Below, one piece after another: positions 2,258 to 8,818 of a stretch of 33,214 bases of DNA; the first letter of the stretch is position 1, and each line of letters starts with the position of its first letter. The stretch comes from a virus (Duplodnaviria > Heunggongvirae > Uroviricota > Caudoviricetes): IMG/VR virus record IMGVR_UViG_2537561930_000012, one strand, 5' to 3'. Position numbers and translations under genes: made by a program. The notes beneath the pieces were generated by a model. That model did no database searches, was not told where the DNA came from, and saw only the letters and a program-made list of their open reading frames with translations.

Positions 2258-2285
2258 TTGATTTTTCCGGAATCTGTGGTAAATT
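2258..2285 (+). promoter_or_regulatory. Candidate late promoter pR' (sigma70; -35 TTGATT, 16-bp spacer, extended -10 TGgTAAATT)
   Basis: TTGATT at 2258-2263 and TAAATT at 2280-2285 preceded by TG; located just after the Q stop as in lambdoid phages. Confidence 0.45.
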
Positions 2286-2332
2286 CGTCATAACGATGGG
2301 CGTTTTATGCCTGACGTTAGAAGAGTTTCTAC

Positions 2333-2358
2333 AACCCGCCGCCGAGCGGGTTTTTTAT
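2333..2358 (+). terminator. Intrinsic terminator (tR'-like) downstream of pR'
   Basis: GC stem cccgc/gcggg (2335-2339 / 2346-2350), extendable to 7 bp, followed by TTTTTTATT. Confidence 0.5.
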
Positions 2359-2997: not shown

Positions 2998-3213
2998 ATG
3001 AAATCCATGGACAAAATTTCAACGGGCATTGCCTATGGCACCTCCGCAGGCAGTGCTGGCTACTGGTTTTTACAGTGGCTTGATCAGGTCAGTCCGTCAC
3101 AGTGGGCTGCGATTGGTGTACTGGGGAGTCTGGTTCTGGGCTTCCTGACTTATCTGACAAATCTGTACTTCAAAATCAGAGAAGACAAGCGTAAGGCTGC
3201 ACGGGGAGAGTAA
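2998..3213 (+). CDS. Class II holin, phage 21 S21-type pinholin, with dual-start motif (Met1/Met4)
   Basis: 71-aa [56 protein letters not shown]...; two TM segments; strong SD GGAGGTGAGG upstream. Confidence 0.85.
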
Positions 3214-3631: not shown

Positions 3632-4165
3632 ATGAACGCAAAAATCAGATACGGCCTGTCGGCTGCCGTTTTGGCACTGATTGCCGTCGGTGCGCCCGCG
3701 CCTGATATTCTCGACCAGTTTCTGGATGAAAAAGAAGGTAACCACACAACGGCATACCGCGATGGGTCCGGCATCTGGACCATCTGTCGGGGTGCCACGA
3801 TGGTGGATGGAAAACCCGTTTTTCCCGGTATGAAACTGTCGAAGGAAAAATGCGACCAGGTCAACGCCATTGAGCGTGATAAGGCGCTGGCATGGGTGGA
3901 GCGCAATATTAAAGTACCACTGACCGAACCACAAAAAGCGGGTATAGCGTCATTTTGTCCCTATAACATTGGCCCCGGTAAGTGTTTCCCGTCGACGTTT
4001 TATAAGCGGCTGAATGCCGGTGATCGTAAGGGTGCATGCGAGGCGATTCGCTGGTGGATAAAAGATGGTGGGCGCGATTGCCGCATACGTTCAAATAACT
4101 GCTATGGACAGGTTATTCGCCGTGACCAGGAAGCGGCACTGGTGTGCTGGGGTATCGACAGCTAG
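3632..4165 (+). CDS. SAR endolysin (phage lysozyme, GH24, RrrD/R21-like)
   Basis: 177-aa ORF; N-terminal Ala/Gly-rich signal-anchor-release segment (LSAAVLALIAVGAPAP); catalytic E-x8-D-x5-T motif (EGNHTTAYRDGSGIWT). Confidence 0.85.
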   Translation: MNAKIRYGLSAAVLALIAVGAPAPDILDQFLDEKEGNHTTAYRDGSGIWTICRGATMVDGKPVFPGMKLSKEKCDQVNAIERDKALAWVERNIKVPLTEPQKAGIASFCPYNIGPGKCFPSTFYKRLNAGDRKGACEAIRWWIKDGGRDCRIRSNNCYGQVIRRDQEAALVCWGIDS

Positions 4166-5719: not shown

Positions 5720-6182
5720 GTAACAGCAGGCATTACAGCAGCCCTTCACTGAGGGGCTGCGATAATGTGAGGAATAAAAAACCGGCAGGGGAAATCCATT
5801 GAAGATTTGCCGGTGGCAAAAGATGGCCATGCTTTTAACCTTAGTAGCAGAGTTACGGAGTTCAACAACGACCGTCGCCGTTATCTTGCTGAAAGGCGTT
5901 TCAATGATTTTCATCAATTTATTCATCAGCAATGGTGATAATCACTCTCATTTTGGCGGGTCCTTCCGGTGGGGTGGCCTGCCACGGGGCGGGAGCGTCG
6001 CGGAAAAAGGCTAGTTTTTGCATTTCCATGGTGGCGGCAGCATGTTTGGTAATTTATTGATAATTAAAAGTTATTTCTCTTTTCAGCTGTACAATATTTT
6101 TTTCTCCCTGTCATTAGACTCGTTTGCAATTAATTGAAATATATAAATAAACCTGATTTTCACCTGCCAGATGGAGTTGCTT

Positions 6183-6710
6183 ATGTCAAATGTGAGCGGG
6201 ATCGGTGATGCTTATTACTGGAGTGTTTTTAAAATCGCCGAGGCCTTTGGGCTTCACCGGGACACAGTAAAAAAACGGCTCCTCGCGGCCAACACTCCTG
6301 TGGCTGCGACTGTCAGGGGGAACCCCGTTTACGCCCTGCAGCATGTCGGGCCTGCCCTGTTTAGTGTGAAGCATGAGGCAGCAGACTCTGTTCATGATCC
6401 ATCCCGTATGGAGCCGAAAGAGAGAAAGGACTGGTACCAGTCGGAAAATGAAAGGATCAAGTTGGAAAAGGAGCAGCGAAAACTCATCCCCGTTGATGAA
6501 GTAGTCATCGTCTATTCGTCCATGAGAAAGGCTGTCGTCCAGGTTCTGGAGACAATTCCGGATGTTCTTGAACGCGATTGCGCCCTGACTCCTCAGGCCG
6601 TTGGCGTTGTACAGCAGGCCATTGATGACCTGCGATACACTCTTCAGGAAAAATCCTACGAGGCTTGTGCTGCTGAATTAATTCCTGATGAGGAAGGAGA
6701 GAGTCTCTAG
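6183..6710 (+). CDS. Terminase small subunit (Nu1-like, N-terminal HTH)
   Basis: ORF 6171-6710; ATG 6183 has better SD spacing (GGAG at 6173-6176); immediately upstream of the large terminase. Confidence 0.65.
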   Translation: MSNVSGIGDAYYWSVFKIAEAFGLHRDTVKKRLLAANTPVAATVRGNPVYALQHVGPALFSVKHEAADSVHDPSRMEPKERKDWYQSENERIKLEKEQRKLIPVDEVVIVYSSMRKAVVQVLETIPDVLERDCALTPQAVGVVQQAIDDLRYTLQEKSYEACAAELIPDEEGESL

Positions 6711-6718
6711 GAGGAATA

Positions 6719-8818
6719 ATGGGTTTTTCATCAGCCCGAAATTTGGGAAGGGACATATCGGCAGGATTTTCCCCACCACGTCGCATGCCGATTTCGGAGG
6801 CTGTTAAAAAATTCATGCGTGTTCCCAAGGGGGCTGGTAACTCGGTGCCATGGGATCCTGAACTGACACCCTACATCATTGAGCCCATGAACTGCCTGGC
6901 ATCGCGTGAATACGATGCGGTGATTTTTGTTGGTCCTGCGCGAACAGGGAAGACCATTGGTCTGATCGATGGATGGATTGTCTATACCATCGTTTGCGAT
7001 CCTTCGGACATGCTCGTTGTGCAGATGACCGAAGATAAGGCCCGCGAGCATTCAAAAAAGCGCCTCGACAGAACGTTCAGAAGCAGTGCGGCGGTAAAGA
7101 AAAGAATGAGTCCACGTCGTAATGACAATAATGTCCATGATAAGACGTTCAGGGATGGCTCGTTCCTTAAAATTGGTTGGCCCTCGGTCAACATTATGTC
7201 GTCGTCGGATTACCGGTTTGTCGCCTTAACCGATTACGACCGTTTTCCGGAGAATATCGACAGCGAGGGTGATGGTTTCTCCCTGGCCTCAAAACGTACC
7301 ACCACATTTATGTCCGCCGGGATGACTCTGGTGGAGAGCTCGCCGGGACGTGACATCTGCGACAGCAAATGGCGACGTAAGTCGCCTCATGAAGCGCCAC
7401 CGACGACTGGTATTCTTTCCCTTTACAATCGTGGTGACCGCCGCCGCTGGTACTGGCCATGTCCGCACTGCGGTGAATATTTTCAGCCAGCCATGGATGC
7501 CATGACCGGCTACCGTAATGAACCGGATCCCTTTAAAGCCAGTGAGGCGGCGTATCTACTTTGCCCGCACTGCAGCGGCATTATCACTGCGGAGAAAAAG
7601 CGTGAGCTCAATAGTGCAGGAGTCTGGTTGCGTGAAGGTCAGGTCATTGATTGTAACGGCAACGTTTCCGGTGAACCGCGCCGCTCCCGTATCGCCAGTT
7701 TCTGGATGGAAGGGCCAGCTGCTGCGTATCAGACCTGGGCGCAACTGGTTTACAAATTACTGACTGCAGAACAGGAGTATGAAGCGACAGGAAGTGAAGA
7801 AACACTCAGGGCGGTTATCAACACCGACTGGGGATTACCTTATCTTCCCCGCGCCAGCATGGAGCAACGAAAAAGTGAACTGCTTGAGCAGCGGGCAGAG
7901 CCAGTTCCTTCCCGCAGTGTGCCAGATGGCGTTAATTTTCTTGTGGCGACAGTGGATGTGCAGGCGGGACGTCATCGCCGTTTTGTGGTTCAGGTAACGG
8001 GCTATGGCAGCCGTGGCGAACGCTGGATTATTGATCGTTACAACATCACGCAGTCATTGCGCGGTGACAGCGACGGGGAGAGCCAGCGAATTGATCCGGC
8101 CAGCTATCCGGAAGACTGGGATGTCCTGCTGACGGATGTTTTTCATAAAAGCTGGCCGCTGGCCTCCGATCCTTCTCAACAAATGCGACTTATGGCAATG
8201 GCGGTGGACTCCGGCGGTGAAGACGGGGTCACTGATAATGCCTATAAATTCTGGCGTCGTTGCCGTCGTGATGGCCTTGGTAAACGTATTTACCTGTTTA
8301 AGGGCGACAGCATCCGGCGCGCAAAACTGATCAGCCGTACATTCCCTGATAACACCGGACGAACGGGCCGACGGGCGCAGGCCGCAGGTGATGTGCCGCT
8401 CTGGCTTCTTCAGACGGATGCCCTGAAAGACCGGGTGAATAACGCGTTATGGCGTGACTCGCCAGGTCCCGGCTATGTGCATTTCCCTGACTGGCTGGGG
8501 AGCTGGTTTTACGACGAACTGACGTATGAAGAGCGGAGCAGTGACGGGAAATGGAGTAAGCCGGGTCGCGGTGCCAACGAAGCTTTTGACCTGATGGTGT
8601 ATGCCGAGGCTCTGGTCATTCTGCATGGATACGAAAAGATCCGCTGGCCGGATGCACCGGAGTGGGCGAGCCGGGAAACCTGGCTGGAGTGTGTCCCGGA
8701 CAGTACCGAACCGTCACCCTCACCGGAACCGGTATCCACGCCTGTTAAAAAACAAAAACGGAAGAAAACAGTAACTGACGATGTTAACCCCTGGCTGACT
8801 TCCGGAGGATGGTTATGA
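6719..8818 (+). CDS. A: Terminase large subunit (lambda gpA family)
   Basis: 699-aa ORF; Walker A-like GPARTGKT, CPHCGEYF and CPHCSG zinc-ribbon-like motifs; SD AGGAGG upstream. Confidence 0.9.
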   Translation: MGFSSARNLGRDISAGFSPPRRMPISEAVKKFMRVPKGAGNSVPWDPELTPYIIEPMNCLASREYDAVIFVGPARTGKTIGLIDGWIVYTIVCDPSDMLVVQMTEDKAREHSKKRLDRTFRSSAAVKKRMSPRRNDNNVHDKTFRDGSFLKIGWPSVNIMSSSDYRFVALTDYDRFPENIDSEGDGFSLASKRTTTFMSAGMTLVESSPGRDICDSKWRRKSPHEAPPTTGILSLYNRGDRRRWYWPCPHCGEYFQPAMDAMTGYRNEPDPFKASEAAYLLCPHCSGIITAEKKRELNSAGVWLREGQVIDCNGNVSGEPRRSRIASFWMEGPAAAYQTWAQLVYKLLTAEQEYEATGSEETLRAVINTDWGLPYLPRASMEQRKSELLEQRAEPVPSRSVPDGVNFLVATVDVQAGRHRRFVVQVTGYGSRGERWIIDRYNITQSLRGDSDGESQRIDPASYPEDWDVLLTDVFHKSWPLASDPSQQMRLMAMAVDSGGEDGVTDNAYKFWRRCRRDGLGKRIYLFKGDSIRRAKLISRTFPDNTGRTGRRAQAAGDVPLWLLQTDALKDRVNNALWRDSPGPGYVHFPDWLGSWFYDELTYEERSSDGKWSKPGRGANEAFDLMVYAEALVILHGYEKIRWPDAPEWASRETWLECVPDSTEPSPSPEPVSTPVKKQKRKKTVTDDVNPWLTSGGWL

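Follow-up and report, generated by a model that had tools for sequence, protein, structure and literature searches.

A very probable lambda- and P22-type late-gene control cassette directly downstream of gene Q in a lambdoid prophage common in Escherichia coli

The antiterminator Q of phage lambda belongs to the protein family PF03589, while Q21 and Q82 belong to PF06530 and PF06323, respectively (PMC9388147). In lambda, the Q-binding element (QBE) sits between the -35 and the -10 hexamers of the late promoter PR' (PMC6606751), where the helix-turn-helix of Q touches one end of the element and its zinc-ribbon arm touches the other (PMC6606751, PMC9388147). The first transcribed bases of lambda, AACGAT (+1 to +6), are a -10-like sequence that is rebound by region 2 of sigma70, which pauses the polymerase at +16/+17, and the GGG at +7 to +9 acts as a discriminator-like reinforcement of this pause element (PMC4005639, PMC5001585). 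Lambda has in addition a -35-like element, TTGACT, that is bound by the repositioned region 4 of sigma and helps Q to load. This element is described as specific to lambda, and other lambdoid phages lack it in their late promoters (PMC6606751), so that it does not define the family. In P22, the reference record (NC_002371) annotates the late promoter (P-late/PR'), the qut site (-17 to +14), the 5' nucleotide of the RNA, which is the first A of AACGAT, and the terminator t-late. The region downstream of PR' is also a known insertion site of "morons" (PMC4104026).

Here, we describe a window of 33,214 nucleotides, the whole stretch of DNA that was analysed, which covers the late control and the late operon of a lambdoid prophage. 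The block that follows its gene Q is very probably a late-gene control cassette, homologous to lambda Q-PR'-qut-tR' as well as to P22 gene 23-Plate-tlate. The features of the region are, in order:

1-1047: gene of a DUF968 protein, the first in the gene order (Pfam and ORF annotation).
1060-1434: RusA, between the DUF968 gene and Q.
1431-2252, + strand: gene Q, encoding a lambda-family late antiterminator of 273 aa (PF03589).
2258-2263, + strand: -35 hexamer of the predicted late promoter, TTGATT, read directly and aligning with TTGACT of the lambda and P22 PR'.
2264-2279, + strand: promoter spacer of 16 nt, TTTCCGGAATCTGTGG, a candidate Q-binding element (conservation and covariation with the Q helix).
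Within the spacer, + strand: extended -10 motif TGg (T2277, G2278, g2279), abutting the -10 hexamer.
2280-2285, + strand: -10 hexamer TAAATT, the same as the -10 of PR' in lambda and P22.
2292-2300, + strand: predicted +1 (A2292) and pause element, AACGAT (+1 to +6) and GGG (+7 to +9), from the lambda/P22 alignment.
2307-2309, + strand: putative pause position (+16 to +18), placed by analogy with lambda PR' and the elemental pause sequence.
2333-2358, + strand: tR'-like intrinsic terminator (terminator scan, folding, conservation).
2358-2386, + strand: promoter-like site before the tRNAs (homology to the "pT" of 933W-type phages).
2396-2705, + strand: cluster of four tRNA-like genes (ARAGORN, Rfam).
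2913-2938, + strand: second intrinsic terminator (terminator scan, folding).
2998-3213, + strand: P21-type holin, followed by a DUF1327 gene.
3632-4165, + strand: lysozyme, after the DUF1327 gene and followed by a DUF1441 gene.
6171-8818, + strand: gpA-type large terminase, after the DUF1441 gene.

The long ORFs 3' of the switch, from lysis through tail genes, are all on the + strand, to ~29 kb.

The product of gene Q matches the Pfam profile "Antitermination protein Q" (PF03589) with 185 bits (E 2.6e-55), against a cut-off of 26.7. It is 28.8% identical to lambda Q over the full length (E 2e-28) and matches chain Q of PDB 7UBM, the cryo-EM loading complex of lambda Q, with an E-value of 3.4e-40. 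The match to lambda Q comes in two segments: residues 1-113 pair with residues 1-113 of lambda, and residues 182-273 with residues 116-207. The protein of the window is thus a lambda Q with an insertion of ~68 aa. This insertion is Cys-rich and lies at the base of the zinc-ribbon arm; a four-CxxC arm is found where lambda Q has a single zinc ribbon. The corresponding region of lambda Q contacts the zinc-binding domain of the polymerase, so the details of loading may differ from those of lambda. In an alignment of seven Q proteins, G39 and several other residues among the N-terminal 44, which make the "nozzle" of lambda Q, are invariant, as are L268, T272, and R273 at the C terminus.

The predicted sigma70 promoter lies directly 3' of this gene, its -35 hexamer starting 5 nt past the stop codon of Q (2250-2252). 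A first-pass annotation of this DNA had placed a promoter right after Q, which the assignment of the gene to PF03589 supports, and had called it a near-consensus extended -10 promoter. The latter description holds for the position of all the elements, but not for their quality: each hexamer has 4/6 consensus matches, 8/12 in total, which is a moderate consensus match only, and a scan demanding 9 of the 12 did not call the site at 2258-2285. Sites with at least 4/6 matches in both hexamers and a TGn motif occur four times in the window vs 8.0 +/- 2.9 times in dinucleotide shuffles. The promoter match by itself is no better than chance: shuffled sequences hold at least as many matches of this type, and agreement with the consensus is no argument for the promoter. 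The case for a switch rests on homology, position and context, and conservation. What goes beyond chance is a combination: the 9-mer that follows the -10, the spacing of this 9-mer, the terminator, the Q stop codon 5 nt upstream, and the conserved block. The similarity in layout is apparent when the three systems are written side by side: TTGACT-17-TAAATT-TGACTC-AACGATGGG in lambda, TTGACT-17-TAAATT-TGACTC-AACGATGGA in P22, and TTGATT-16-TAAATT-CGTCAT-AACGATGGG in the window.

The 9-mer at 2292-2300, 6 nt past the -10 hexamer, is identical to positions +1 to +9 of lambda PR' in both bases and spacing. No other exact copy occurs in the 33-kb window, and the pause element of P22 differs from it by a single base. 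The initial transcribed region thus contains, by sequence, a sigma-dependent pause element made of a -10-like hexamer and a G-rich triplet. Alignment with lambda and P22 predicts that transcription would start at A2292, in agreement with the interval 2292-2295 that had been predicted earlier. It had also been proposed to look for elements of Q binding (qut) and pausing that overlap with the promoter; the search returned the AACGAT and GGG just described and a candidate Q-binding element in the spacer, to which we return below. The pause itself would fall at ~2307-2309, where T2308/G2309, with G2299 10 bases upstream, fit the pattern of elemental pauses (PMC5001585).

An intrinsic terminator lies 3' of the putative pause site and 5' of the late genes. 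Its hairpin (2333-2352, AACCCGC-CGCCGA-GCGGGTT) has a stem of 7 bp, of which five are G-C, and a loop of 6 nt, and its 3' end is overlapped by six Ts (2351-2356). It folds at -10.6 kcal/mol (z = -2.6 vs shuffles). The stem begins at +42 relative to the predicted start and 48 nt past the -10 hexamer, in keeping with the GC hairpin and T-run that had been noticed about 50 nt past the promoter. The terminator is 33 nt past the 9-mer, and the hairpin is 81 nt past the stop codon of Q. A terminated RNA starting at 2292 is predicted to be ~66 nt long and to end at 2356-2359; the full predicted transcript of 67 nt folds at -21.4 kcal/mol (z = -2.5). The terminator stem is 97.4% paired across 33 relatives, and three of its pairs are changed on both sides, each in few sequences; this covariation is thin because close relatives have the same core. 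Two further hairpins that folding had placed within the 5' half of this RNA were discarded, as the 33 relatives have only one-sided changes or broken pairs at these places, and natural changes at +3/+4 have no compensation at +24 to +27 in relatives. More broadly, a hairpin and T-run are found 94-143 nt past the Q stop codon in 16 of 19 diverse phages of the lambda-Q family, with unrelated stem sequences, and most have a -10-like repeat just past a promoter. The hairpin of SfV that is homologous to that of the window is annotated as a putative rho-independent terminator.

When 82 related loci (43 unique sequences) are aligned, the block from the -35 hexamer to the end of the T-run (2258-2356) is conserved as a unit, and both of its flanks diverge. 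The 12 nt before the -35 (2246-2257) are heavily polymorphic, and from 2357 on the relatives carry unrelated modules, i.e. the tRNA cluster, a DNA-methylase module, or others. The same type of Q and promoter is found with differing downstream modules, and vice versa. There is a recombination boundary directly after the T-run, at the moron insertion site known from other phages (PMC4104026). Wherever a related viral locus continues beyond Q (78 loci), it has the promoter; the -35 hexamer is essentially invariant among the 43 unique sequences, and the -10 is also conserved. Variation within the block is concentrated in the 5 nt between the -10 and +1, the loop of the hairpin, and positions 3-4 of the pause hexamer. 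The distribution of the block is broad: at least 80% of 2230-2395 is present in 1,228 of 5,426 complete E. coli genomes, mostly at 95-100% identity. The phage mEp460_ev081 shares both Q and the block, at 98.5% identity, while Evi and Stx2_EH1910 have the block at ~85% identity. The block is identical in E. coli UK_Dog_Liverpool (CP031653). The records of mEp460, Evi, and EH1910 have no annotation of the promoter, pause element, or terminator.

The variation in the pause element is of a particular kind. Across the 43 sequences, A1, A2, A5, T6, and the GGG are invariant except in one aberrant sequence, and the only recurrent changes are at positions 3-4 of the hexamer. Copies of the block that are otherwise 94-100% identical have three alleles at each of positions 3-4 of AACGAT and at base +11, and the hexamer variants found in such near-identical copies are AATGAT, AACAAT, AATAAT, AACTAT, AAAGAT, and AATTAT. 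Throughout this allelic series, the sigma-contacting A2 and T6 are fixed, as is the GGG. One possible cause is selection on the strength of the sigma70-dependent pause, and hence on the leakiness or timing of late-gene expression; another possible cause is a mutational hot spot resulting from a constitutively open, paused transcription bubble. That the alleles in this very common switch reflect a tuning of pause strength is a tentative idea, to which we give a minor but real chance.

The evidence for a candidate Q-binding element lies in the spacer. Its sequence TTTCCSGAATCTGTG is nearly invariant in relatives, while the DNA just 5' of the -35 is variable, and the spacer is common to mEp237, Klebsiella Kpn_R1, and Erwinia phiEt88, whose Q proteins are only 50-62% identical. 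Its sole common polymorphism is at base 2269, which is G or C. This base agrees with the variant of the Q recognition helix in 100% of 99 loci (71 unique combinations of protein and base), with no exceptions: C2269 is found with the helix [L/I]DTWKK (43 unique proteins, 66 loci) and G2269 with (R/V)A(S/T)WEK (28 unique proteins, 33 loci). The helix of the window's Q reads TRASWEK, while the Q of phage Evi is of the LDTWKK type. When one genome of each species was scanned for the pattern of spacer, -10, and pause element, 27 matches came out, of which 21 are further enterobacterial loci, in Kluyvera, Yokenella, Leclercia, Enterobacter, Rouxiella, Klebsiella, Pseudescherichia, Chimaeribacter, Silvania, and Escherichia. 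The six others, in Verrucomicrobiota, Bacillota, and Acidobacteriota, were set aside as chance matches, with neither a Q-like protein upstream nor a terminator. The G-type Q proteins with an Enterobacter-like backbone are 88-94% identical to C types outside the helix, which is as close as they are to other G types, and the G-type Q of Chimaeribacter is ~61% identical to either type. The pairing of helix and base therefore holds on at least three backbones, and it extends over about ten enterobacterial genera. Part of the agreement could be due to linkage because the codons of the helix (~2210-2225) are only ~45-60 nt away from base 2269. Overall, the helix-turn-helix of Q covaries with its putative DNA subsite, which points to a candidate Q-binding element with its core at CCSGAA (2267-2272; here CCGGAA, with G2269 as the specificity base). 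A QBE between the -35 and -10 hexamers is thus suggested by a conservation of the spacer far beyond the ordinary needs of a promoter and by the covariation at 2269.

The elements that we observe, their homology to those of lambda and P22, their conservation, and the covariation between Q helix and spacer base lend themselves to a scheme in which the start site, the pause, the binding of Q, and the read-through are taken from the lambda paradigm. Host sigma70 RNA polymerase would start at ~A2292 from a moderate promoter with an extended -10, which in the lambda paradigm is constitutive. Region 2 of sigma would rebind AACGAT, with the GGG as reinforcement, and the complex would pause ~16-17 nt downstream. 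Without Q, the polymerase would escape from the pause and terminate at 2333-2356, leaving the RNA of ~66 nt. Once Q accumulates, it may bind the spacer element (CCGGAA, 2267-2272) by its helix-turn-helix and load onto the paused polymerase, which would become resistant to termination. The modified polymerase would then pass the first terminator, the tRNAs, and the terminator at 2913-2928 and reach the lysis, terminase, head, and tail genes. The first-pass annotation had proposed this arrangement of Q-dependent antitermination, and the presence of a lambda-family Q and the element-by-element match to lambda PR' and to Plate/qut/tlate of P22 argue for it.

The same annotation had predicted that Q-dependent read-through extends into the tRNAs and late genes. 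The orientation of the late ORFs, all on the + strand, is consistent with the latter part, but the tRNAs probably have a promoter of their own. A second promoter-like site, TTGCGG (2358-2363) and TATTAT (2381-2386) separated by 17 nt, directly follows the T-run, and 9 nt separate its end from the first tRNA. A stretch upstream of ileZ in 933W-type Stx2 phages has 87% identity with positions 2356-2400 (45 nt), and one record of this type labels the matching stretch "pT; putative tRNA promoter". Hence, 2358-2386 is probably a tRNA promoter, and if so, the tRNAs need not rely on read-through alone and may be expressed without Q. ARAGORN identifies in the cluster a tRNA with anticodon CAT (Met), a doubtful tRNA-like Lys-TTT, Thr-TGT, and Gly-TCC, of which Rfam calls three. 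For an identical prophage, RefSeq (PGAP) gives Ile, Thr, and Gly tRNAs only and assigns the CAT tRNA to Ile2. Further downstream, the second terminator (GCCCGC-TTTT-GCGGGC and a T-rich tail, with the hairpin at 2913-2928) precedes the holin and folds at -13.7 kcal/mol (z = -3.8). Late transcription would thus have to pass two terminators.

Other explanations of the block have to be weighed against that of a Q-dependent switch. The early-right/Q operon might simply end at the hairpin, with the promoter-like site a product of chance, which would be in line with the position of the hairpin 81 nt past the Q stop codon and with a promoter match that is, alone, not above chance. However, this leaves unexplained why an exact AACGATGGG stands 6 nt past the -10, why the -10 is identical to that of lambda and P22, why the -35, spacer, and -10 are invariant in 43 unique relatives amid variable flanks, and why the Q helix covaries with the spacer, and we regard it as highly improbable. 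The least credible alternative is that the promoter serves mainly the tRNAs, the hairpin being an attenuator unrelated to Q or, in a variant of this idea, a leader-peptide attenuator of the Trp-leader kind. The tRNAs do begin 38 nt past the terminator, an ORF starts from ATG 2296, and Rfam gives a Trp_leader match at 2253-2359, but the score of this match (25.5 bits, E 0.016) is well under the gathering score of 41 (RF00513), and the ORF lacks a ribosome-binding site, starts at +5, and crosses the terminator into a tRNA. Furthermore, a conserved promoter-like site of their own precedes the tRNAs, and the promoter-terminator block is also present in relatives without tRNAs directly 3', which have a DNA methylase or other modules there. 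The Trp-leader variant was rejected: at a permissive E-value, Rfam returned only tRNAs and this sub-threshold match.

An explanation of another kind is compatible with the role of a switch. The RNA of ~66 nt could itself be functional, as a constitutive, Hfq-binding, trans-acting sRNA resembling StxS, a precedent in which a by-product RNA of PR' has become a regulator and which its authors propose to be possibly common (PMC7547250). The transcribed part of the block is ~80% identical in SfV, phiSTEC1575-Stx2k, PhiR47_1, and a Salmonella phage; within the 201 bases queried, these phages have nothing else that is similar by blastn. The short RNA has an AGAAGAG stretch and the U-tail of its terminator. 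Yet the pause element and the terminator already account for most of the conserved positions, and the two upstream hairpins are without compensatory changes. The leader has no above-threshold match to an Rfam family and none in a search of the full-text literature. Nor does a relationship to StxS emerge, since the leader has no detectable similarity to the PR' leader of Stx phages: in a blastn search with 2200-2400, the Stx matches cover only the tRNA promoter and tRNA (2356-2400). We thus consider a function of the RNA itself unlikely and retain the Q-dependent switch as the explanation of the block.

This kind of element is textbook material and common in E. coli, and its description changes little in principle. 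What is gained is a precise annotation of a cassette that is present in about a quarter of the complete E. coli genomes, and, with the natural G/C switch at 2269 and the helices A(S/T)WEK and DTWKK, a ready specificity pair for studying how Q proteins of the lambda family read DNA. Moreover, the four-CxxC arm and the absence of the lambda -35-like element suggest that this subfamily of Q may load somewhat differently from the solved lambda complex.

The cassette shares with the lambda Q-PR'-QBE-SDPE-tR' cassette (6S RNA) 1) a homologous Q of PF03589; 2) the same -10, TAAATT; 3) the same AACGAT and GGG at the same 6-nt distance from this hexamer; and 4) a promoter directly past Q, followed by an intrinsic terminator and then by lysis and morphogenesis genes. 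It differs from lambda in the spacer, which has 17 nt in lambda (TATTGAATAAAATTGGG) vs 16 nt in the window, the two sequences being unrelated, which implies a different specificity of Q. It also differs in the length of the leader (194 nt in lambda vs ~66 nt), in the distance between promoter and Q stop codon (42 nt vs 5 nt), and in Q itself (207 aa vs 273 aa with the Cys-rich insertion). Where lambda has the -35-like TTGACT, one base before the pause hexamer, the window has TCGTCA, which matches it at 3/6 positions; the relatives of the Evi type have TTGTCC or TTGCCC there (4/6). The P22 gene 23-Plate-qut-tlate cassette has the same family of Q, the same promoter layout, and a short leader, with tlate ~30 nt past the start of the RNA, in a compact arrangement like that of the window. 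In contrast, its spacer and its Q (207 aa) are of the lambda type and its terminator hairpin is unrelated in sequence. SfV has a transcribed part that is 80% identical, but a different promoter spacer and a Q with 39% identity, and ES18 has an unrelated hairpin of its own, with a putative terminator annotated downstream of its Q.

The logic is the same in the PR'-tR' region of Shiga-toxin phages, where transcription from a constitutive late promoter terminates early and yields a short RNA, and where tRNA genes and an insertion site of morons lie just downstream (PMC7547250, PMC4104026), and these phages have the homologous putative tRNA promoter pT; the Q of the Stx2-phage locus 06-3462 is, however, much shorter and annotated as similar to that of H-19B/DLP12. 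The cassettes of Q21 and Q82, and AlpA of Pseudomonas, also rely on a DNA-bound antiterminator with a site between the -35 and -10, and Q21 and Q82 load at a sigma-dependent, promoter-proximal pause (PMC6606751, PMC7969949), but these proteins are unrelated to lambda-family Q, and their pause positions and binding-site architectures differ. The closest system in layout is P22, with its short leader, and the closest in sequence are mEp460 and related E. coli prophages.

A comparison of 22 loci that diverge by less than 6% along 967 nt finds three alleles at just four sites, and three of these sites are positions +3, +4 and +11 of the transcript predicted from the late promoter (2294, 2295 and 2302). 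The third and fourth positions of the pause hexamer, AACGAT in the window, vary to AATGAT, AACAAT, AATAAT, AACTAT, AAAGAT and AATTAT, while A1, A2, A5, T6 and the GGG of the pause element remain fixed. The alleles at +3, +4 and +11 could reflect a tuning of the pause, or they could mark a hot spot in a bubble that is constitutively open. Lambda, P22, mEp237, SfV and the window (2292-2318) all have a CGTT some 20-27 nt from the start of the transcript, complementary to the transcript's 5' AACG; RNA pairing of the two is unsupported, because the natural changes at +3 and +4 are not compensated at the complementary CGTT.

Among related loci, the most variable stretch of the promoter-terminator block is 2286-2291, between the -10 and the predicted start. 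Where lambda has its -35-like TTGACT, the site of the repositioned sigma region 4, the window has TCGTCA (2286-2291 region); Evi-type relatives have TTGTCC, TTGCCC or TTGCTC.

Directly 3' of the terminator T-run lies a sharp mosaic junction (2357-2359), after which relatives sharing Q and the promoter continue into four or more unrelated modules; the tRNA module is found behind both promoter types. In the window, the T-run is followed by these features.

2358-2386: second promoter-like site, TTGCGG-17-TATTAT, directly 3' of the terminator and 9 nt 5' of the first tRNA
2712-2722/2747-2757: inverted repeat 1, 11 nt, perfect
2765-2778/2824-2837: inverted repeat 2, 14 nt, perfect
2836-2844/2882-2890: inverted repeat 3, 9 nt, perfect
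2913-2928: strong terminator, inside the gap that precedes the holin gene

The promoter-like site is conserved with phage Evi and, in 933W-type Stx2 phages, with the stretch 5' of ileZ that is annotated "pT; putative tRNA promoter"; this putative promoter may allow Q-independent expression of the tRNAs. ARAGORN calls the CAT-anticodon tRNA at 2396-2471 Met, but the RefSeq (PGAP) record for an identical prophage has it as Ile, in line with ileZ of Stx phages. ARAGORN also calls a tRNA-Lys(TTT) at 2473-2549; since Rfam's tRNA model does not recover it at E <= 1 and the same RefSeq (PGAP) record does not annotate it, this call may represent a degenerate tRNA-like sequence. All three inverted repeats fall within the 290-nt gap between tRNA-Gly and holin (2706-2997), which has no match in Rfam; EHEC prophages encode small RNAs 3' of PR', past inserted "moron" genes (PMC4104026).

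The Q protein itself carries an insertion at the base of its zinc-ribbon arm.

1770-1973 (Q residues 114-181), + strand: insertion of about 68 residues, placed exactly between residues 113 and 116 of lambda Q

With it, the window Q has four CxxC motifs (CPCC, CPECGGKG, CKDCRGRG and CQRCGGRG), as against two in lambda Q. Three of the four are CxxCxGxG motifs, which resemble the DnaJ zinc-finger domain (a weak PF00684 match, E 2e-6), and SfV has a shorter version of the insertion.
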